A DNA stretch of 64,000 bases from a candidate division FCPU426 bacterium. GTDB taxonomy: Bacteria > Oederibacteriota > Muellerivitia > Muellerivitales > Muellerivitaceae. Under the pieces are notes generated by a model, which was not told where the DNA came from, did not search any database, and was given only the letters and a program-made list of their open reading frames with translations. The translations under genes and the position numbers were made by a program. Shown piece after piece: positions 3,941-57,073 of the stretch. How positions within the stretch are numbered: position 1 is the stretch's first letter; every line of letters starts with the position of its first letter. The stretch covers positions 96,001-160,000 of the forward strand of contig CAVYSE010000003.1 in the NCBI GenBank assembly GCA_963771075.1, read 5' to 3'.

Positions 3941-4051
3941 CATTGGGGTCAGGTCTTTATTTTATATTGTCTATCCGGACCTTGAACCTCGTCTCTCCCT
4001 CCATCCTCTTCTTTACCATCGCCATCCGGTTCCCCACTGCCGAACACATTA
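3939..4051. repeat. 113-bp tandem unit, copy 1 (copy 2 = 4052-4064 + 5389-~5483, split by IS110); resembles the 3' end of a RAYT element
   Basis: AACATTGGGGTCAGGTCTTTATTTTATATTGTCTATCCGG.. repeated with few substitutions; GGGGTCAG also starts the RAYT TIR at 7830. Confidence 0.8.
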
Positions 4052-4099
4052 AACATTGGGGTCACCTATGAAAAAGAATGTCCAGGCAAAAGCGTAGTA

Positions 4100-4230
4100 T
4101 CACGGCCCCAAGTCCAACCTGAGTCTCAAAGGACTACAAGTCAGTCACCTATTCGCGGTTGTTTCACCGCACGATAACGTTGGACCCGGCCGCTCAATCA
4201 GGCCAAGGACCTCAACTCTTGCGGGTTGTG
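4100..4230 (-). ncRNA. candidate bridge/seek RNA of the IS1111-type element
   Basis: Contains GTTATC and ATAGGTGA, matching opposite strands of the predicted circle junction and flanking a hairpin. Confidence 0.6.
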
Positions 4231-5253
4231 TCAGACCCCGTCGGAGCTGGCCGGGCAGTCCTCAAAAGCTTCCTTCTTTCGTAACATATGAAAGATGCTT
4301 TTCAGCATAGCCCTTGCTACTGCTATTCGTCCCGCGTTATTCCCATGCTTCTTCTTCACCCTCGTGTATAAGGTCCCATACCGTCGGGTTTTGCGAATGG
4401 CATGAAGCGAGTTCTCAACCAATATCCAGCGAATCCATTTAGAACCCTGTTTGGTGATGTGGCCGTTGTGGCTTTTTCCCCCTGATGCGTGAACACTGGG
4501 GACCAATCCACCATAAGAACATAGATGTTCCGCGTCCGGGAACCGGCGAATATCCCCAATCTCGCTCAAAATTAATAAAGCCGAAAAGGCACCCACGCCT
4601 GGCATGGTCATCATCAGCTGGGCTTCCGGGCTTTCTGCTGCCATTTTCTTGATCACCTCTTCTGATTTGGCGATCTCTTGGCCTAGTTCCCGGATTACTT
4701 CCATATATCCGTCCAGTTCCAAACGGTAGCAAGGCCGGGTACCTACCGTGGCAAGTTCGCGGAAGTTCTTTATTCCGAATCGGTTTTTAGTAACGGGTTC
4801 GATTCCCGCCTTGGTCATGACCGAAGTCATCCGGTTTTTGGCTTGTGTTCTCAATTGCACCAGGGAAGCCCGGTACCTAAGGATTTCCCGTAAGTCGCGG
4901 ATCTCTCGGGGTGGCACATAGGCTCGTGGCAGCAGATCCACCCGCAAAAGTTGAGCCAGGATTCCCGAATCAATTTTATCCGTCTTGATCTTGGCCGAGG
5001 CTATGGCTTTGACCTTTTGGGGGTGGGCCAATACCAGGTTGGGGAATCGATCCTCGATGAGTTCGTAAAAGTGATACCAATGACCTGTGGCTTCTACTAC
5101 GACCTGGCTACTCACGGGTTGCTTCTTGAAATAAGCCTTTAAAGTATCCGCGTCGTTCTTCAGATCGACTTGTTCCAGCACCTTTCCTTTCTCATTCACT
5201 CTCGTGACGTAGGATGTTTTCTGGTGTAGGTCTACTCCGATATACTGTCCCAC
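4231..5253 (-). CDS. IS110 family transposase (DEDD recombinase)
   Basis: YIGVDLH, VVEATG, KTDKIDS, MPGVG, GLVPSVHASGGK motifs. Confidence 0.95.
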   Translation of the reverse strand: MGQYIGVDLHQKTSYVTRVNEKGKVLEQVDLKNDADTLKAYFKKQPVSSQVVVEATGHWYHFYELIEDRFPNLVLAHPQKVKAIASAKIKTDKIDSGILAQLLRVDLLPRAYVPPREIRDLREILRYRASLVQLRTQAKNRMTSVMTKAGIEPVTKNRFGIKNFRELATVGTRPCYRLELDGYMEVIRELGQEIAKSEEVIKKMAAESPEAQLMMTMPGVGAFSALLILSEIGDIRRFPDAEHLCSYGGLVPSVHASGGKSHNGHITKQGSKWIRWILVENSLHAIRKTRRYGTLYTRVKKKHGNNAGRIAVARAMLKSIFHMLRKKEAFEDCPASSDGV

Positions 5254-5531
5254 GGCTGCACCTCCTAAGCGTTTTGCACCACCTGCAAAGGTGAGTGCCT
5301 TTTCGACTCTGGGTTTATCCTAGAGCCTCGTCCCACTTAAGTGGAGACGCTCTACGCTTGGAGCTCTGCAGCCTTTTTCATGTTATCAGGTCTTTATTTT
5401 ATATTATCTATCCGGGCCTTGAACCGCGTCTCTCCCTCCATCCGCTTCTTTACCATCGCTATCCGGTTCCCCACTGCCGAACAAAAAAAGGCCACCATTA
5501 TCCACTTTAGACCCTTCCGCCCTCCACCGCA

Positions 5532-5645
5532 TTATCGCACCCGATAGGCCGCCTTCGGTTCCTCAATAAACCCGATCTTCCGAGCAGGTTTATTCGGTTC
5601 TTCATACCGCTTCTAATTGAAAGCTAATTGGAATGCGGCATCGTC
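5532..5645 (-). pseudogene. C-terminal remnant resembling ORF6N-family proteins
   Basis: ..DAAFQLAFN*KRYEEPNKPARKIGFIEEPKAAYRVR*; recognised by eye only. Confidence 0.35.
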
Positions 5646-5699
5646 CCCCCTTTTGACCTTTCGGGCAAAAGGGGACATTGGGTCCCCGTCGTGGAAAAC

Positions 5700-6107
5700 C
5701 TATTTTCTGATAACAAAGTTTTCCATTGAAACAGTCAGACCCGGGGTGGCACGGCGTAGGGCGCGATCCTCGGTCACGCAAGGCACCCCAAGCTGCTGGG
5801 CCAACAAGACATATTGGGCGTCGTAGGCTGATATTTTGTAATGAAGGGCGATTTCTAAGGTTTCAATGGGCCCCAATTCAACTTCGTTTGGAAGGAAATG
5901 GGCATAAACATCTTCTAATGCCTTGGCCGCTTTTTCTTTGGTTAATCCGCCCTGCCGGACATAGGTGGTGAATATGTTGAGAATTTCATGGCGCCAAAGA
6001 CTCGGAAGTCGCCAATACGGATCCCGATCACGCACTTGGAGGGCTAAAGGCGTCAGCGACCCTTCGATAATGGAATAAGCTAAGACATTCGCATCCACGA
6101 CAATCAA
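5700..6107 (-). CDS. vapC: PIN-domain VapC toxin
   Basis: IVVDANVL..HEILN..ISAYDAQY..VTEDRAL; TTG start overlaps the antitoxin stop. Confidence 0.9.
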   Translation of the reverse strand: MIVVDANVLAYSIIEGSLTPLALQVRDRDPYWRLPSLWRHEILNIFTTYVRQGGLTKEKAAKALEDVYAHFLPNEVELGPIETLEIALHYKISAYDAQYVLLAQQLGVPCVTEDRALRRATPGLTVSMENFVIRK

Positions 6108-6322
6108 GCGCGGCCCTCTTGGATGGTCTTTTTCAACCATGCGGGAGTGATGGGAAATTTCCCCTTGATGGGTTCGGGCCAAGGACGCTCGGAATGCCCG
6201 GACAAAGCTTCCTCCAGGAGAGCCAACGCTTCTTTGGTCATAGACCTTCGATGTTGGGTCGCGAATTCCTTGAGTTTCTTATGCACTGGGCCCGGAACGT
6301 TTTTGATCAAAATATCAGGCAT
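6104..6322 (-). CDS. ribbon-helix-helix (FitA/Arc-like) antitoxin
   Basis: MPDILIKNVPGPVHKKLKEFATQHRRSMTKEAL; GGAGG RBS; coupled to the PIN gene. Confidence 0.88.
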   Translation of the reverse strand: MPDILIKNVPGPVHKKLKEFATQHRRSMTKEALALLEEALSGHSERPWPEPIKGKFPITPAWLKKTIQEGRA

Positions 6323-6563
6323 ATCCGCCTCCTATCCAAACGATATCATAACAATATCATTACAATAGTTAAGTTTCAAGGCTCTTCCATAACTCGGGTT
6401 GTCTGCTAGGCCTCCCCGTCGTGGACAAAGAAACTTTAGAAAAGGTCCTACTCGGGAATCCAAATGCAATGGTTTATTGGGCTTATATTCATATTATTTT
6501 ATCCACGGGACCCCAGACCCGGTTCGATTTCAAGTTGAGTCGTAAATTACAACAGAGGTTCCC

Positions 6564-7330
6564 TCACGGCACGTCCAAAGCCAGCTTTTCCCTTTTCGGG
6601 TTGAAGCCATCGGACGATTGGGGGTCCTCCAAGCGGTGAGCGTCGTCCCACTCCTTCGGGTTCACGACATAAAGGCTGTGCTTGCCCGGCGCGAGGCCCT
6701 GCAGGGCCGCTTCCAGGTTTTCCCGGTGGGGCTGCTGGTCGGTATCCATATCCACGTTCCAAACCCTGTCCCCGAATAGGAAGCCCGACTTTTCCATGGG
6801 AGAGTTGTCCCACATCATCACGGCCTCGCCGCCGCCATCCAGCAAAACACCCTGGTTCGGGTAAGGCATACCGCGAACAGGCACCGCTTTGCCGTTTTGC
6901 GAGGTCTTGATAAAAAATTCCATGGCCGAAACCAGGTGCTCCATGGCCTCCGCGTTGGCGCAGAACATCGTGAAGGGCTTTTTCAGGCTGGACGCCACCA
7001 CGCCGCAATAGTAGGAAGTCCCCGGGTGGTCCGACACCGTTTCGATTTTGGAGCAATGGATGGCCCGGACGTCTTCCCAAAAGAACGCGGTTTTCGCCGG
7101 GCTGGCGCCCACCCCCAGGAAATTGCCCGCCAGGTTTCCCAGCGCGTCCCCCGGCAGGTTCAGGGTGAGCCCCGTGGCGCCCACTTGGACCGACTGGATC
7201 TGTTTCTTGTCGTGCCCCTGCACGAGGATGTATTTGTCCGGGTCCGCCAGGTCTTGCAGGCGTCCCGTGGCCATGCCCTCGCCCATTGCGCTATCGGCCG
7301 TGATTGGGCAATCCAGGACCCGGCATGACG
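6564..7330 (-). pseudogene. 5'-truncated gene fragment with PDZ-like C-terminus
   Basis: High-GC coding-like codon use only in this part; NSPMEKSGFLFGDRVWNVD is PDZ-like; the upstream part of the 426-aa ORF runs through repeats. Confidence 0.45.
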
Positions 7331-7829
7331 GGGGGAGAACGGCTATTTCAGCTTCGAGGTAACTCTTATCTTCGTCGCTCTCTTTCCAAGCGCAGGCGGA
7401 AATATAGGTAAGATTAGTCGACAGTCGACGGTCTGCAGCCAGAGCACCAATTCCCTTTTCCGGAATTGGCGCGCTCAAACCTTGTTCCCCGGTTTGAGAC
7501 CTCGGAACAGAGGACAGGGAAGCTTTGGGTTTAGCCGGCAGTCGACGGTCCGCAGTCTGCCCTGAGCCCCGTCGAAGGGTTGGCAGGGGCGCCTTTGGCG
7601 ATGATTGAACCTGAGAAGTCGTGTCGTTCTTTGTGTCTTCGTGTCTTTGTGTTGGATTTGAAGTTCCCGGGGTTGGAATTGTCGTGGGTAGTGGTTGAGG
7701 AAAAGCCTTACTATCGCCTTCCCAAGGGTTTACCCAAGACCCTACCCAATGGATTGCCCCGGAGGCGGTCCGGCTCAACAAGCCCCTTAGCCCTGCCGGG
7801 TGGAAGAAGAATAGTCGACCAGCTATAAA

Positions 7830-8851
7830 GGGGTCAGTCATCAATTATTAATATTTACAAGTTGGAGGCAATCGGTTAGCTTGTCGGGGCTATGAGAAAA
7901 CCTAGACTTCTTTATCTCGGCGGCTTGTACCACGTGATTGCCAGGGGAAATCAAAGGCAAAAAACATTTTTGGCCAAGGTTGATTTTCTTAAATATCTGG
8001 AACTATTAGGCGAGCATTTGGAAACGCGTGAAATAAGGCTTTATGCCTATTGCCTGATGCCCAACCATGTTCATCTGTTGGTAGAACAAGCCGGTGATTA
8101 TCCCTTGTCCCGGTATATGCATCGGCTCCAAACGGCTTATACCCAATTCTTCAACCGGACCCATAAGAAAGTAGGCCATCTTTTTCAGGGTCGGTATAAG
8201 GCCATATTGGTGGACAAGGATTCATATCTGTTGGAATTGGTTCGATACATTGGGTTGAATCCGTTCAGGGCGAAATTGGAGGAAAAGCCGGGAATATATC
8301 CCTGGACCAGCCACCAACAATATTTGGGCCGAGAGAATAAGCCATTGGCGAAAGTGGAAGTTGAACCAGTTTTGGCTCTTTTCAGCAAAATGAAGAAAGA
8401 AGCCCAAAAGGCCTATTTGAGGTTCGTCAAGGAAGGCATGGGGGAAGGCCATCGGGAGGATTTGTATGATGTCCGGCAGGGACATATTTTGGGGGACCAG
8501 GAATTCGAACAAAAAGCGCATCAAAAGGCCCAACGTCCGCTGTCAGGTGCGAGTTTGAAGGTGAAGAAAACATTACCTGAAATATGGAAAGTACTTTTGA
8601 AACGGGAAGGGCATAGTGAAGATCCGACAGGCCATCGCCGAAGCCGTTTAATGGAAGAAGCGGCCTATCTAGCGTTTGAGGGTTGTGGGATAAGCCAAAG
8701 AGAGATAGGGGTATATTTTGGGAAAAATCAAAGCGCAGTCAGCCAGGCCATTAGGCGTTTGGAGATGAAGTGGAAAGAACAGCCCGGGGAAAAGGAGAAG
8801 TGGTTTCGATGGGCGCGACACTTAGAATATTAATAAATGATGACTGACCCC
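7830..8851 (+). mobile_element. RAYT/Y1 HUH transposase element with 26-bp terminal inverted repeats
   Basis: GGGGTCAGTCATCAATTATTAATATT (7830-7855) versus the inverted copy at 8826-8851, 25/26 identical. Confidence 0.85.
7892..8833 (+). CDS. REP-associated tyrosine transposase (Y1_Tnp) with C-terminal HTH
   Basis: YHVIARGN, YCLMPNHVHLL (HUH), GHLFQGRYK, RYIGLNP, YPWTS. Confidence 0.92.
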   Translation: MRKPRLLYLGGLYHVIARGNQRQKTFLAKVDFLKYLELLGEHLETREIRLYAYCLMPNHVHLLVEQAGDYPLSRYMHRLQTAYTQFFNRTHKKVGHLFQGRYKAILVDKDSYLLELVRYIGLNPFRAKLEEKPGIYPWTSHQQYLGRENKPLAKVEVEPVLALFSKMKKEAQKAYLRFVKEGMGEGHREDLYDVRQGHILGDQEFEQKAHQKAQRPLSGASLKVKKTLPEIWKVLLKREGHSEDPTGHRRSRLMEEAAYLAFEGCGISQREIGVYFGKNQSAVSQAIRRLEMKWKEQPGEKEKWFRWARHLEY

Positions 8852-9233
8852 GTTCACCAAGACTTTTAGGAAATTATTTTGATCCGCGTGTTAATTTAGC
8901 AAACGACCTAGCCGGAGGGTTATCTTTTTTCAGAGTTTAGATGATGAGCTTTTGGGATTGCCAGGTTTTTTAAGTGCTGTTGTCAAAGTTGTAGCAGGAG
9001 TTATATGAATCAATTAGAAAATCTCTTCAAATTTTACAGCCAGGTGAAAAAAACTAAATCATTTGTATTTAGTGCGGCCCTATTGGGTGGTGTAGTCGTA
9101 ATATTCAACTATTGTTTTTATCACTACTATTTGAGGTTTCGAATTCCTTTTATAACAGATTTGGATTCATTTGAATTTGATTTCTTGGGATATTTTTTAA
9201 ATATTACTACTTGTATGATTTTTTATATATTCT

Positions 9234-12587: not shown

Positions 12588-12734
12588 GAAGCTAACCTCT
12601 TTGAACCGCTGTTTTTCGGTTTATTTTTTGGCTGTTCGTTGACGAAACTTGCGCGTTAAAAACAACGAAATCCGCCTTTGGGGAGGCGAGAGTATACAGA
12701 AAAGGGGTCAGAATGGAAAGGAGTTAAGATTCTT

Positions 12735-13064
12735 GGCAGTGTCTCAGTTTTAAAGGGATATTAAATTAAGTCGTCATTGCGAGGGTCAGCCCCAACCCTT
12801 CGACTTTGCTCACGGCCCTGAGGCTCTCGAAGGGTCGGGGAGGCATGAACAAGGCATGTAGTAGGTTGTACACCTTGAACCTACGACAAAACCTGAGATT
12901 CCCACGTCGCATACCGCTTTTCTACCTGATGTTTATTGAATGCGGTATTGCCCAGTCTTCCGTTGCCCTAAAGGGCAACGGGGGCAAATCGTACTGATCT
13001 CCTAATTTCAAGGATATGGAAATCAGCACTGCTCCTCGGAATGACTTCAAACTGAGACACTACC
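12735..13064. mobile_element. MITE copy A (GGTAGTGTCTCAGTTT-type TIRs, 8-bp TSD)
   Basis: TIRs at both ends; flanks AGATTCTT / CGATTCTT; inverted homologue at 23352-23641. Confidence 0.85.
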
Positions 13065-13877
13065 CGATTCTTGGGTTTTTCCCAAAAACCCCAATAAGAC
13101 TCTGCGAAAACCATCCGGGTTGTCCACGAAAACCCCGTGACCGGCCTTTTCAACCCCCACAAGCCGGCCCTGACGGATCAATTTTTCAATTTTGTCCGCT
13201 TCCTCCGGCGAAACATACGCGCTCTCCAGGCCCTTCATGAAAAGCACCGGGCATTGAACCTTTTCCAGCCAAGGGGAGTAATCCACGGCCCTTCCCCATT
13301 TTTGCGTTTCCACAATAGCGGGGATGGAGAAGACCCAATCCCATTTCCCATTTTCTTTTTTCTCGAACTGGGTCTTTTCATGGGCGATCTTTCTTTCCCG
13401 GCCGGGAAAGAGAATTTCGAGGAACCGATCCAAGCTGGGCTCATCGTCAAAAGGCGCGGGATATCGGGCGAACTCTTCCACATGTTTCTTCCAACGGTCG
13501 GGCGCGGGCATAAGGGTTTGGTCGATGATGGTTAGGCTGAGGGCCATGCCGGGGTACAGACCCGCGAAAACCAGGGCGTTCCGTCCCCCCGTGGAGTGGC
13601 CCACGATGTGGGCTTGGGGGATTAACAGTTCATTTAGGATTGCGGCCAAATCCTGGGCGTGGTCCTCGGGCGTGTAACCCCTTTCCGGCTTGTCGCTCTT
13701 CCCGTGGCCCCTCATGTCCGGCGCCCAGACCCGGAAGCCTTCGCTTGAAAGCCATTGGGCGGTTTCCTTCCAAGTGAAACAGCGGGACGTAAGACCGTGG
13801 AGAAGCAAAACCACGGGTCCCGCCTTGCCCCAGGTCTCGTAATAAAACTTGCCGCGTGGCGTCAGGGTGAATGGCAT
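13047..13877 (-). CDS. alpha/beta fold hydrolase
   Basis: LLHG, DMRGHGKS, GHSTGG nucleophile motif, AGH. Confidence 0.92.
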   Translation of the reverse strand: MPFTLTPRGKFYYETWGKAGPVVLLLHGLTSRCFTWKETAQWLSSEGFRVWAPDMRGHGKSDKPERGYTPEDHAQDLAAILNELLIPQAHIVGHSTGGRNALVFAGLYPGMALSLTIIDQTLMPAPDRWKKHVEEFARYPAPFDDEPSLDRFLEILFPGRERKIAHEKTQFEKKENGKWDWVFSIPAIVETQKWGRAVDYSPWLEKVQCPVLFMKGLESAYVSPEEADKIEKLIRQGRLVGVEKAGHGVFVDNPDGFRRVLLGFLGKTQESGSVSV

Positions 13878-22086: not shown

Positions 22087-22441
22087 TTGTTCAGCCTCTT
22101 TCCTGAATTTGTAGATAGAGTCTGTTTTAAATCTTGCTTTATTTGGTTGTCATTGCGACGAGTGGCCGCCGATATCCCGCATTTCCTTATTTACCCTTAA
22201 AGAAAAACGGGGCTAGGGGGACGTTCACGAGAGGCTTGTGGTAGTTGGCCTAAATTCGGCCAACCATCCATGGGCTTTAGCCCATGGACAATCCCAGTTT
22301 AAAAAGCCTTTAAAAAGGCCAAGACGAACATCGAACTGAGATCGCGACGTCGGCAACCGCCCCGATTGGGGCGCCCCCTCTCGATGACAGACCACAAAAA
22401 GTACTTCAAAACCCTTTATCTGCAAATTCGGGAAAGGCCCA

Positions 22442-22515
22442 TTGTTCACGATGGGCCTGGTTGGTTCTATTTAGCCAAATGGGTCATCCGTTAGGTTGCA
22501 CGACGGGGACCCGTC
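22442..22515 (+). repeat. degenerate GTCCAC/GTGGAC-family palindrome
   Basis: TTGTTCACGATGGGCC...CACGACGGGGACCCGTC. Confidence 0.5.
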
Positions 22516-23273: not shown

Positions 23274-23351
23274 GCCTATATCCTAGCGGAAAAAGTTCAA
23301 CACCGACATCTAACACAAAGCCACAAAGAACGGCAAATAAGGAAAAGTCTG

Positions 23352-23641
23352 GGAAGTGTCTCAGTTTGAAGTCATTCCGAGGAGCAGTGCTGATTTCCAT
23401 ATCCTTGAAATTAGGAGATCAGTACGATTTGCCCCCGTTGCCCTAAAGGGCAACGGAAGACTGGGCAATACCGCTTCAATAAATACCTAATAGAAAAGCG
23501 GTATGCGACGTCGGAATCCCAGGTTTTTCCGTAGGTTCAAAGTGTACAACCTGAGATTGCTACGGTTCAAACCGCCCCGATTGGGGCTGACCCTCGCAAT
23601 GACGACTTGAATTAATAGCCCTTTTAAACTGAGACACTACC
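23352..23641. mobile_element. MITE copy B (inverted relative to copy A)
   Basis: TIRs GGAAGTGTCTCAGTTT / AAACTGAGACACTACC; flanks AAAGTCTG / AAATTCTG. Confidence 0.85.
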
Positions 23642-23729
23642 AAATTCTGACTTTTCAAAAAATCAGGTCTTACTTCGCCTCCCTGAGTGTCTTTGTGCCT
23701 TGGTGATAGCCTTGGTTTTTACTCTTGGT

Positions 23730-52658: not shown

Positions 52659-52724
52659 TGTCCACGACAGGTCCCCGCCATGTTGCATGTGCTTGCGTTT
52701 AGCTACATGGCCCGTTGTGGATAA
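52659..52724 (-). repeat. GTCCAC/GTGGAC palindrome, long form
   Basis: Minus strand TTATCCACAACGGG CCATGTAGC..GCAACATGG CGGGGA CCTGTCGTGGACAA. Confidence 0.85.
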
Positions 52725-53255: not shown

Positions 53256-53322
53256 GTGATCCGAGATGGGTCCCCGCCATGCAGCATGCGCTTGCCCTTA
53301 GCTACATGGCCCGTCGCGGACC
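53256..53322 (-). repeat. GTCCAC/GTGGAC palindrome, long form
   Basis: Near-copy of 52659-52724. Confidence 0.85.
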
Positions 53323-54308: not shown

Positions 54309-54338
54309 TTGACCACGACAGGTCCCCATAGGGGGACT
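54309..54338 (-). repeat. GTCCAC/GTGGAC palindrome, half copy
   Basis: TTGACCACGACAGGTCCCC is 18/19 identical to 52659-52677. Confidence 0.75.
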
Positions 54339-54339
54339 A

Positions 54340-54774
54340 TTATCCGTTCCGATTGGCAGAGCGGGCATGCCGAACATAGCTTTCCACTTCCAATTGGGTA
54401 TGTGTAGCGATTTTGTCCATGTCCGCATCGGCATGAAGCAGGATCAGATGGTGTTTATGCGCTTTATAGGCGATCAAAGCATCAACTGTTTTTATCTTGT
54501 GCCCTTTTTGGCGATGTTCCCGCACCCACTCGGCCGCCTCCACCCACTCATGGGGAAATAAGGGGAAAGTGTGAAGCGCGGATAAATGAGCCGCCAACAG
54601 GGCCGAATGAGCCTGGGATTTCTCCGAGGAAACAAGCTCAAAGAAGATAGGGGATGTGATGGCCGCAAGATTGTTTTCCACCAATTTCTCCACCCTAGCC
54701 CGTATAACCTCCAACGGGTGAGAACCTAAGGCAAAAATCCACGCGGAACTATCGATCAGGTAAAGTTTATTCAA
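54340..54774 (-). CDS. vapC: PIN-domain VapC toxin
   Basis: LIDSSAWI, FFEL, TVDALIA, LHADADM. Confidence 0.9.
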   Translation of the reverse strand: MNKLYLIDSSAWIFALGSHPLEVIRARVEKLVENNLAAITSPIFFELVSSEKSQAHSALLAAHLSALHTFPLFPHEWVEAAEWVREHRQKGHKIKTVDALIAYKAHKHHLILLHADADMDKIATHTQLEVESYVRHARSANRNG

Positions 54775-54968
54775 CCCCTGGACTCTTTTAGGGATTTAGG
54801 CGTGAGATTAAGGCGGAACTTATCGAAATCCTTCACGAAACTCTTCCTTTGGATTTCCGACAATAAGTTGCGCAAGCCCGCCTCAAGGACTTCCCGTTGA
54901 GTAGCGATTCCCGTTTCCCGCTTGGCCTGTTTTAAAAGGCCTTCATCGATATGGGTTGTGATTTTCAT
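54771..54968 (-). CDS. vapB: VapB antitoxin
   Basis: MKITTHIDEGLLKQAKRETGIATQREVLEAGLR; GGAGG RBS; 4-nt overlap with the toxin. Confidence 0.88.
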   Translation of the reverse strand: MKITTHIDEGLLKQAKRETGIATQREVLEAGLRNLLSEIQRKSFVKDFDKFRLNLTPKSLKESRG

Positions 54969-54981
54969 ATTAACCTCCGTG

Positions 54982-55004
54982 AGTATGGCATTGCTTGCCA
55001 TACT
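54982..55004 (-). promoter_or_regulatory. inverted-repeat operator of vapBC
   Basis: AGTATGGCA-N5-TGCCATACT perfect 9-bp IR next to a TATAAG -10-like box. Confidence 0.6.
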
Positions 55005-55064
55005 TATATCAAATTCAGGGGGTATAGACAATCGGGCAAAATTACAGACCAGGCCCAAATTCTT

Positions 55065-57044
55065 GCAGAGTAGAGCGCTGGCGCGTATGCCTTAGAGTAC
55101 GGTGGCGAATCCAACCCTTTCGGATTGGGCCTCAGTCCGGCTCTCATCACCACGTTTCCAGCGCCCCCTCATCAAACCGTACGTGACCTTTTCGATCATA
55201 CGGCTTTCCGACAACCTTTCAACCGGCAGCATTCAAGGCAAAAGCTGGAATCCAGTTCAAACCAAGGCGTTTCACTTCCTCGATCGACCATGTTCGTCCT
55301 TCCCAGGCGTACTTATGCCTCCGAAACAAAGTCAGCCTTTCGAGTACGTAAAATTGAAGCTTGGAAAAGTATGGCTGGCTGTCCCCAATTCGGAAATAGT
55401 TGGCCCACCCCCTTAACACCGGGTTCAAAGCCTTCGCTACATCCTCCATTGGAGATAAGAGCCGCTCTCGGCCCGCCGTCATCTGCTTCACTTTCTCGGC
55501 GATTTTCTTCATGGCCTTCCGGCTCGGCCAGCTCAGGCAACAGGTCTTACCCAATCCTACCACCGGCATACCTACTCGAAAGTGGAACCCAAGGAAGTCA
55601 AACCCTTCCTTCCCAGGCCCCATTTCCACCAGCCGTGTCTTTTCGGGGTGCAGTTCAAGCCCTAGTCGTCCCATCAATTCCTTGATGACTTCCAGGCTCT
55701 TTTCCGCATGGGCTTGGCTTCCGCACAACACCACAAAATCGTCGGCGTAGCGCACCAGCCTACCCAGTTTCCTGTGCCTCTTATTCCAAACCTTGTCCAG
55801 CAAGTGAAGGTAAACATTGGATAACAGCGGTGAGATCACCCCGCCTTGCGGTGTCCCTCGGAGAGTCGGCGTAAGCCTTCCTTCCTCAAACACACCCGCC
55901 TTCAGCCACCCTCGGATCAGTTTCAAAACCTTCCGGTCACTGATCCTCTGGCGCACCAGCACCATCAGTTTGTCGTGGTCGATGGAATCGAAATACTTCC
56001 GAATATCTCCATCCACCACCCATCTGTACCCGCCATTGATCCACTTCTTGATCTCCCGGTGGGCCTGCTGGGCTCCGCGTTTTGGCCGAAATCCAAACGA
56101 GCCTTCCAGAAAGTCCGCCTCAAAGATGGGTTCCACCACCTTCCGGCAAGCCGCTTGAACTACCCGATCCCGAATTACCGGGATTCCCAACGGTCTCTTG
56201 CTTCCATCAGGCTTGGGTATTTCCACTCGTCTCACAGGTTTAGGCAGATACTTCCCAGCTTTGAGTTCTTCCTGGATGCCCTTCAGGAATGGAATAATTC
56301 CCACCTTCTCTTCGATCCATTCCAGCGTTTCCCCGTCCACTCCTCCTTGGCCTTTATTAGCCTTCACCTGTTTCCATGCCGCTGTCAGGACATCCCATCG
56401 GGTCATCCTGTCATGCAGTACATGAAATCTCCGGCTTGGGCTCCTCTTGGCCGCTCGGTATAGCGCCCTTTGAAGGGTTCGCGCCTTGTCTTCGGAGTTG
56501 TTGGCCCTTTGGGGCATGCTCCAGCGCCTCCCTTTTGAAGGTTGCTTGGTTGAAGCAGGGGTCCTTCCCTCCAGGTGGTTTTGTTGTCCACCCTTCACAG
56601 GTATTGTGACCCCCTCCGACTTCCTCCCGCCCTTGCCCCTTTTCGGTTTTAGCCTTATAGCGGCAAGTCTTTTGGCGGGTAGGATCTCCCAGGTTGCTTG
56701 CAAAGCCTTTCCAGCATTCCGTTCCCCATACGCCGGAGGACTTGCCCCGCTTGCTCCAGATTCTTCAGCGGGATCGTGGCCTTCGCCGGTAGACACGCGG
56801 CTCGGCATCCTCTTGCACCTTTCGGTGTCCCATTCACGACGCGGCAGGATTCACTTGATGTTGCGGACTGCTAGATTGTTCCCTCACTGAATGAGGTTTA
56901 TGACCCCGTTTCGGGCAGAACCTCTCGGTCCTACGCCGGGGGCTGACTTCCAGGCTCTCTGGCGATTACCTGGTCAGGATTTGGGCTGGCCCTCTTCGGC
57001 CTACTCCCTCACCTGCTGGCTCTACAAACCTTCGCTGGCACGAT
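55065..57044 (-). mobile_element. group II intron
   Basis: D5 AAGCCGTATGATCGAAAAGGTCACGTACGGTTT (55174-55207); D6 with A 7 nt from the end; EBS1 GTCTAC at 56789-56794; excision restores a perfect 13-bp stem. Confidence 0.92.
55219..56517 (-). CDS. ltrA: group II intron reverse transcriptase/maturase, no HNH domain
   Basis: RPLGIP, GTPQGGVISPLLSN, RYADD, GFDFLG, LNPVLRGWANYF. Confidence 0.96.
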   Translation of the reverse strand: MPQRANNSEDKARTLQRALYRAAKRSPSRRFHVLHDRMTRWDVLTAAWKQVKANKGQGGVDGETLEWIEEKVGIIPFLKGIQEELKAGKYLPKPVRRVEIPKPDGSKRPLGIPVIRDRVVQAACRKVVEPIFEADFLEGSFGFRPKRGAQQAHREIKKWINGGYRWVVDGDIRKYFDSIDHDKLMVLVRQRISDRKVLKLIRGWLKAGVFEEGRLTPTLRGTPQGGVISPLLSNVYLHLLDKVWNKRHRKLGRLVRYADDFVVLCGSQAHAEKSLEVIKELMGRLGLELHPEKTRLVEMGPGKEGFDFLGFHFRVGMPVVGLGKTCCLSWPSRKAMKKIAEKVKQMTAGRERLLSPMEDVAKALNPVLRGWANYFRIGDSQPYFSKLQFYVLERLTLFRRHKYAWEGRTWSIEEVKRLGLNWIPAFALNAAG

Positions 57045-57073
57045 GTCCACGATGAGGACCCATCGTGGACAAG
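57045..57073 (-). repeat. GTCCAC/GTGGAC palindrome interrupted by the intron
   Basis: CTT(55062-55064)|GTCCACGATG-AGGACC-CATCGTGGACAAG. Confidence 0.88.

Follow-up and report, generated by a model that had tools for sequence, protein, structure and literature searches.

A 64,000-nucleotide stretch of a candidate division FCPU426 genome, hereafter the window, carries a group II intron that is F-like, lacks an endonuclease (En-minus) and does not belong to class IIC. It is one of ten near-identical genomic copies, each placed at the outer edge of a 28-bp gene-cassette boundary site. The account we consider probable is that the intron homes into this site by base pairing, and that a short serine recombinase carries out recombination at the centre of the site in an integron-like system. 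This account draws on direct observations of the intron copies and their insertion point, the covariation between exon-binding (EBS) and intron-binding (IBS) sequences, the cassette arrays and their shuffling, an exchange zone at site positions 12–15, and the linkage of a recombinase gene to the site.

The intron occupies positions 55065–57043 on the minus strand (1,979 nt), as delimited by Rfam matches, genome copies and empty alleles. An earlier interpretation made from the letters alone (the sequence-only reading) had called a group II intron here, and the call is upheld by minus-strand matches to RF02003 (56856–56992) and RF00029 (55065–55208) and by a reverse transcriptase (RT)/maturase ORF; a domain 5 (D5), a catalytic triad, a bulged A in domain 6 (D6) and a domain 1 scaffold are likewise present. 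D5 (55174–55208, minus strand; Rfam match and sequence) is full length with an AGC triad, as that reading had stated, and the predicted fold gives a long D6 (55066–55170, minus strand) with the bulged A at 55071 (−7). The 432-aa RT/maturase with a YADD motif (55219–56517, minus strand) starts at an ATG at 56517, preceded by a purine-rich motif resembling a ribosome site, and passes the cut-off of three profiles (PF00078, PF08388 and TIGR04416); its profile matches include no endonuclease family. Homologous RTs measure 430–433 aa. The 10 full copies in the genome are 99.4–100% identical and are accompanied by one ORF-less relative and two 5′ fragments. ORF-less relatives of 780–800 nt, with a different D6, occur at the same bond (G000:C2:57252-58050 and several in G044) and are likely mobilised in trans.

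Intron-free homologues correct the 5′ end from 57044, where it had been placed, to 57043, making the intron one base shorter. An A at the 5′ junction can be assigned to either side, and the earlier reading had put it in the intron. Among 31 occupied junctions with both ends, six have homologous intron-free sequence (four informative, two uninformative), and the A or G that follows GTGGAC or its equivalent belongs to the exon in all four informative homologues. In an independent metagenome, a relative starts directly after base 28 at a site that is empty in this genome. The empty alleles therefore assign the disputed A to the exon, so the intron spans 55065–57043 and the insertion lies at the outer edge of the site at 57044–57071. 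This site (13-GA-13; sequence and empty alleles) keeps its 28-bp core intact with the intron in place. The perfect 13-bp stem previously described was an artefact of deleting an extra base; the arms of the true empty site are perfect over 12 bp. The intron begins 5′ UCGUG and ends GC 3′, a variant of GUGYG...AY, and homologous introns begin GUGUG or GCGUG. We also considered a 3-nt 5′ extension or shifted 5′ splice site of the C.te.I1 type, with a spacer between IBS1 and GUGYG, which the empty alleles refute by placing the start at UCGUG. Contigs from the metagenome and RNA runs contained no intron-free junction of this locus and no spliced junction; RNA run X15 covers pieces of the intron only and gives no evidence of splicing. 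Scans of 2/64 of the genome collection and 1/64 of the metagenome collection returned only 40–60% relatives. The first and penultimate bases are known to interact in group II introns, and here they covary, U with G in 20 insertions and G with A in 5, with no exception among the 25. The same pair, U1 with a penultimate G, is described for UHB.I2 in the part of PMC7923331 available to us.

The site that receives the intron is abundant and bounds arrays of co-oriented genes. Its consensus is TGTCCACGAYGGG-GA-CCCRTCGTGGACA (389 sites, 13 genomes). A loose rule gives 102 matches in the genome (about 100 sites), and sites with 0–4 arm mismatches number 81 vs 0 in each of two shuffles. Thirteen more genome sites, some overlapping the 102, carry a central hairpin insert; one of these 13 copies is the composite site at 53258–53322, with an insert of ~34 bp at its centre, and the composite site at 52659–52723 (repeat family D10) has the same insert, which lies in the site core apparently with a 3-bp duplication. 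At three or fewer mismatches, the site occurs in 25 of 30 other family genomes, once in the one genome of the same order, and in none of 67 other genomes of the phylum; viral contigs held no exact match. Adjacent sites point the same way in 71 of 74 cases, and so do 79 of the 91 ORFs between them, with a median gap of 929 bp; the core of the site at 57044–57071 is oriented opposite to its neighbours. Many of the 266 proteins scanned, which comprised array and flanking ORFs with six integrase-region controls, are toxin–antitoxin, acetyltransferase or unknown proteins. The copy number of about 100, the shuffle control and the cassette arrays agree with the earlier suggestion of an abundant, functional repeat.

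The cassette downstream of the intron illustrates this organisation. It holds a vapB antitoxin gene (54771–55058, minus strand; PF09957) and a vapC toxin gene of the PIN family (54340–54774, minus strand; PF01850), and it is closed by a degenerate site at 54310–54337, recognised from its sequence and from its position, which is that of the full sites of homologous cassettes. Homologues of vapBC occur in 8 of the 30 other family genomes, in six of the eight with site-like sequence at both ends, and their neighbours differ. Judged by this comparison, the vapBC unit is a mobile cassette. Further degenerate sites in the window (5670–5697, 6400–6427 and 22495–22512) lie next to a PIN gene and unknown ORFs.

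Pairing between intron and exon probably accounts for the choice of target. The same palindrome is found at all 13 intron 5′ junctions of the genome, and all 10 full copies are inserted at one bond, directly after site base 28. Eight genomes give 32 distinct insertions, of which 30 follow base 28 directly, some of them at degenerate sites (29 were flagged by script, and L188, a degenerate site, was added by eye), and the remaining two, both in G004, lie in another repeat. Given these two G004 relatives, the lineage is not tied to the 28-bp site. The fold confirms the earlier placement of GUCUAC (56794–56789) in a hairpin loop and its pairing with GTGGAC, which includes one G-U; with the corrected 5′ boundary, EBS1 becomes UGUCUAC (56795–56789, minus strand), 7 nt that pair with exon positions −7 to −1, as judged by the predicted loop and by covariation. 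Over 27 insertions with a readable loop, 189 of 189 EBS1 positions are paired (164 Watson-Crick, 25 wobble), with compensatory variants in G008, G020 and G011. EBS2, AUGGG (56829–56833, minus strand), pairs with exon positions −13 to −9 and covaries with the exon in homologues from G044, G011 and G004. It is paired at 121 of 140 positions over 28 insertions; 12 of the 19 misses fall in one subgroup of four insertions of ambiguous register, and pairing at the standard register is poor in 4 of the 28. In the G004 relative on the other repeat, EBS1 and EBS2 are wholly different and both match its target. The +1 base is A in 30 of 31 occupied junctions, compared to 203/357 and 244/357 empty site ends (57–68%); no EBS3 was located. 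Both core orientations are used as targets, as expected of a palindrome, and the genome still offers no fewer than 43 empty site ends that combine full IBS1 and IBS2 with the A.

Targeting is likely to be sequence homing of the RmInt1 type rather than hairpin reading of the IIC type, because EBS1 and EBS2 change together with the exon, also where the target is a different repeat, and a half-site is enough. The intron-sense strand has positive local GC skew at 9 of the 10 full copies (one of the nine near zero), a faint hint of fork-dependent homing from a test weakened by the clustering of copies on few contigs and the lack of a mapped replication origin.

The intron combines features of several known groups. 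In a quick maximum-likelihood tree of 54 RTs, with references from Table S2 of PMC3552965 and without verified class D, class E or basal F references, its RT falls inside a 49-row clade that contains the g2 and g3 references, where it forms a separate subclade together with its family relatives. In the same tree it lies outside the class C clade, as the non-IIC claim had predicted, and is separate from the attC-linked Klebsiella RT (38% identity, separate branch, SH-aLRT 100). Its RNA features fit those given for IIE/IIF introns in the excerpted text of PMC3753933. As described in the accessible parts of PMC3552965 and PMC3753933, class F/g1–g4 introns are alike in having RT-X only, ~430 aa, ~2 kb, alpha-prime in a terminal loop, a 5-nt D5 loop, a long D6 and IIB-like RNA; no repeat-site specialisation is reported in those parts. 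The intron is not g1, not g2 (no FADD) and does not group with Ni.ha.I1 (g3). Class C introns, including IIC-attC, have a CGC triad, an EBS1 of 3–4 bp and no EBS2, and insert after a required stem-loop, at TTGT/T in attC; in contrast, this intron has an AGC triad, a 7-bp EBS1 and a covarying EBS2, and inserts at GTGGACA/A with degenerate left arms tolerated. RmInt1 targets an IS gene and has an RT of a different lineage, whereas the target here is a cassette boundary. What RmInt1 (class D, IIB-type) shares, according to the text of PMC4075523 at hand, is the En-minus state, IBS1 at −7 to −1, IBS2 at −13 to −9, a single-base IBS3 and a multi-copy target. IIC-attC introns, as far as the excerpts of PMC4424553 and PMC7923331 describe them, are alike in being En-minus, present in many copies and specialised on the repeated boundary site of cassette arrays; the intron studied here differs in that its target is not attC, in needing no hairpin and in inserting in either orientation, outside the core. 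The IIB introns of integron arrays (UHB.I2 and H.ha.F1/F2) are also non-IIC and next to cassette sites, but appear in the part of PMC7923331 used here as isolated cases at attC, compared to 30 insertions at one bond with covariation in our data. The known group II specificities given in the excerpt of PMC4424553 are homing, terminators and attC; the present case counts as homing, with a multi-copy cassette site as its target. The intron resembles IIC-attC introns in ecology and RmInt1 in mechanism and belongs to neither class, and the proposal that a non-IIC intron has specialised on this repeat family agrees with the 30 of 32 insertions, the EBS covariation and the RT tree.

Flanking sequences indicate that the site is a shuffling point with central exchange. 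A comparison of 352 empty full-flank sites (50 nt at ≥90%) gives 25 pairs with just the left flank in common, 29 with just the right flank in common and 2 in which both agree. These collapse to 20 left-sharing and 16 right-sharing independent families, and in 21 of the 36 the partners come from different genomes. In the left-sharing set the left arm differs by 0.35 bases and the right arm by 2.35; the corresponding values are 0.62 and 0.31 in the right-sharing set and 1.45 and 3.14 at random. Arm variants travel with their own flank, and differences at position 11 and at positions 16–17 bracket the exchange to positions 12–15, which include the central GA; a 2-bp overlap is predicted. Neighbours switch at site edges in independent metagenome contigs as well. 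Exchange at attC is not central, and the site appears to behave as a double-stranded site with a central crossover rather than as an attC hairpin. Integron attC sites have RYYYAAC/GTTRRRY cores and variable length, whereas the 389 sites form a fixed 28-bp consensus without those motifs. Integrons also carry the IntI tyrosine integrase beside the array, and none of the eight PF00589 genes in this genome is array-adjacent, as judged with the PF00589 profile. The likeness to integrons lies in co-oriented mobile gene cassettes that are shuffled at a site. Integrons, CALINs and the pdif modules of Acinetobacter are arrays of co-oriented single-gene or toxin–antitoxin cassettes with a repeated site between them; a recombinase gene stands beside a distinct end site, and arrays also occur without a recombinase. 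The arrays described here share all of these traits. They differ in that the candidate enzyme is a serine recombinase, with its 3′ end facing the array, and in having no adjacent tyrosine integrase. In the open-access literature, we found no description of this site, this system or this intron target.

A conserved short serine recombinase is the likely mover of the cassettes, as suggested by its genomic position. The genome has four PF07508 matches, and each of them stops shortly ahead of a hybrid site at an array end; of these four short-recombinase copies, three are 5′-truncated and one is intact, and a 277-aa recombinase is encoded at G000:C8:80002-80835. The same site linkage is seen in G044, G024, G004, G020 and G021 and with a broken copy in G046, while none of the full-length relatives, serine integrases 55–58% identical to the short enzyme, is site-linked. 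The short clade comprises 19 proteins of 275–283 aa that are 68–96% identical, with invariant catalytic-motif residues, and all 19 contain PF00239 and PF07508 only, without a zinc ribbon or coiled coil. Among the 26 family genomes that bear sites, just 7 yielded the recombinase (5 intact), and the site-rich G002, G003, G008, G018 and G041 gave no match. Its predicted single-sequence fold is of low confidence (mean pLDDT 42.5). Large serine integrases, as presented in the excerpt of PMC3783163, likewise have catalytic and recombinase domains and a central dinucleotide that sets orientation. Unlike the short enzyme, they possess the zinc ribbon and coiled coil, which are the source of 25-bp half-sites and directionality: the recombinase and zinc-ribbon domains jointly cover a 25-bp half-site, and deletion of the coiled coil permits attL × attR excision (PMC3783163, same excerpt). 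The missing zinc ribbon and coiled coil would be expected to lead to a short symmetrical site and lost directionality.

Three other readings of these data were weighed. It is quite improbable that the intron reads a folded hairpin, as IIC and IIC-attC introns do, with base pairing secondary. Most targets are indeed near-perfect palindromes that fold as DNA hairpins, and the accessible part of PMC7923331 raises such a role speculatively for IIB introns close to attC. However, the stem contains both IBS1 and IBS2, which folding would conceal, EBS2 is present and covaries, and insertions occur at sites with decayed left arms (G000 C9 and C2, L242, L316, L204 and L206), so a hairpin is not required for insertion. 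The IIC-like hairpin recognition implied by the sequence-only reading thus gives way to EBS1 and EBS2 pairing with the 3′ arm and an A at +1, which explain the targeting.

The other two readings concern the site. In the first of them the account of the intron stands, but the site could be an 11-6-11 tyrosine-recombinase site, dif- or pdif-like, worked by a host enzyme, with the short serine recombinase a once-integrated passenger. We regard this as unlikely, although the geometry can also be read as 11-6-11 by analogy to pdif, eight PF00589 proteins are encoded and many site-rich genomes lack the short recombinase. Against it, no PF00589 gene adjoins an array, and a non-exhaustive search saw no second hybrid end of an integrated element. 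Five sites that are non-CC at positions 16–17 share their left flank with CC sites, which a short overlap fits better than a 6-bp homology rule. Very improbable, finally, is that the repeat is a REP-like element whose flank exchange reflects homologous recombination or assembly joins instead of a dedicated cassette system. In favour of this, the palindrome is short, lies between genes and is specific to the family, Y1 transposases are common (20 matches) and metagenome assemblies can be mis-joined at repeats; yet co-orientation is strict and set by a 2-bp core, each interval holds one or two genes, homologous site-bounded cassettes recur in different genomes (the between-genome pairs above), and neighbours change at site edges in independent metagenome contigs.

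Several other elements were noted, at the site and elsewhere. Two other intron lineages strike it at other bonds. A 3′-truncated g2-type (FADD) remnant sits in a site centre at L003:8386-9990 (G000:C3 about 168386–169990), and a third lineage, including ORF-less forms, inserts after base 19 and splits the site (L298 about 5560–7500 in G004, L252 in G014, and run X2 at L013:5625). A 73%-identical relative of the intron (L189, L205, G004) homes into a different repeat, which is present empty on G000 C7 and C18. Many relatives of ~50% identity have an ATG or GTG triplet immediately in front of them and CAU or CAC in their EBS1 loop (L033, L107, L108, L113, L116 and others, by eye), and are possibly a start-codon-targeting lineage. 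Identical D6-only remnants with shared flanks lie off-site at G000:C11:337047-337150 and C8:93777-93880. Insertion of IS110 at the site was ruled out for the 340-aa family examined near arrays; the IS110 element at window positions 3949–5483 lies between two 98-nt direct repeats of a larger repeat family, and a second IS110 family adjoins sites at C5:86949 and C9:3204. A Y1 transposase gene (313 aa) within 29-bp terminal inverted repeats occupies window positions 7827–8854, with about 15 similar genome copies. Inverted repeats of ~300 bp lie 10 kb apart in the window (12733–13065 and 23351–23643), with shorter relatives at 2559–2608 and 22333–22388. Three adjacent tyrosine recombinase genes at G000:C5:132584-134984 resemble a RIT element.

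Under the favoured account of intron homing and serine recombination, the spliced lariat with its RT would select an A at +1 on either strand of the palindrome, EBS1 pairing with −7 to −1 and EBS2 with −13 to −9. The lariat would then reverse-splice into DNA opened at the replication fork, and the inserted intron would be copied from a nascent-strand primer, as in RmInt1. Since the insertion leaves the 28-bp core unbroken, the intron is added to the adjacent cassette and would move along with it. The 275–283-aa serine recombinase, for its part, may bind ~13 bp to either side of the GA and would recombine like sites with no control over direction.

The intron is ordinary in its chemistry and unusual in its target, and the cassette system is the more novel part. 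On balance, we lean towards the view that this bacterial family possesses a counterpart of the integron whose parts are a naturally shortened serine recombinase and a double-stranded site of 28 bp. The system would be so old and active that group II introns of three unrelated lineages have each evolved homing into it; the present one rides the cassettes and leaves the site unbroken. The intron is a non-IIC counterpart of the IIC-attC introns that probably reaches a cassette site by nothing more than base pairing. Its insertions mark a system of cassette shuffling likely to be missed by integron searches that rely on attC. If the short serine recombinase is the mover, it would be a natural minimal and likely bidirectional enzyme with a 28-bp site, a candidate for a compact tool, and the system would represent a second origin of integron-like gene storage.
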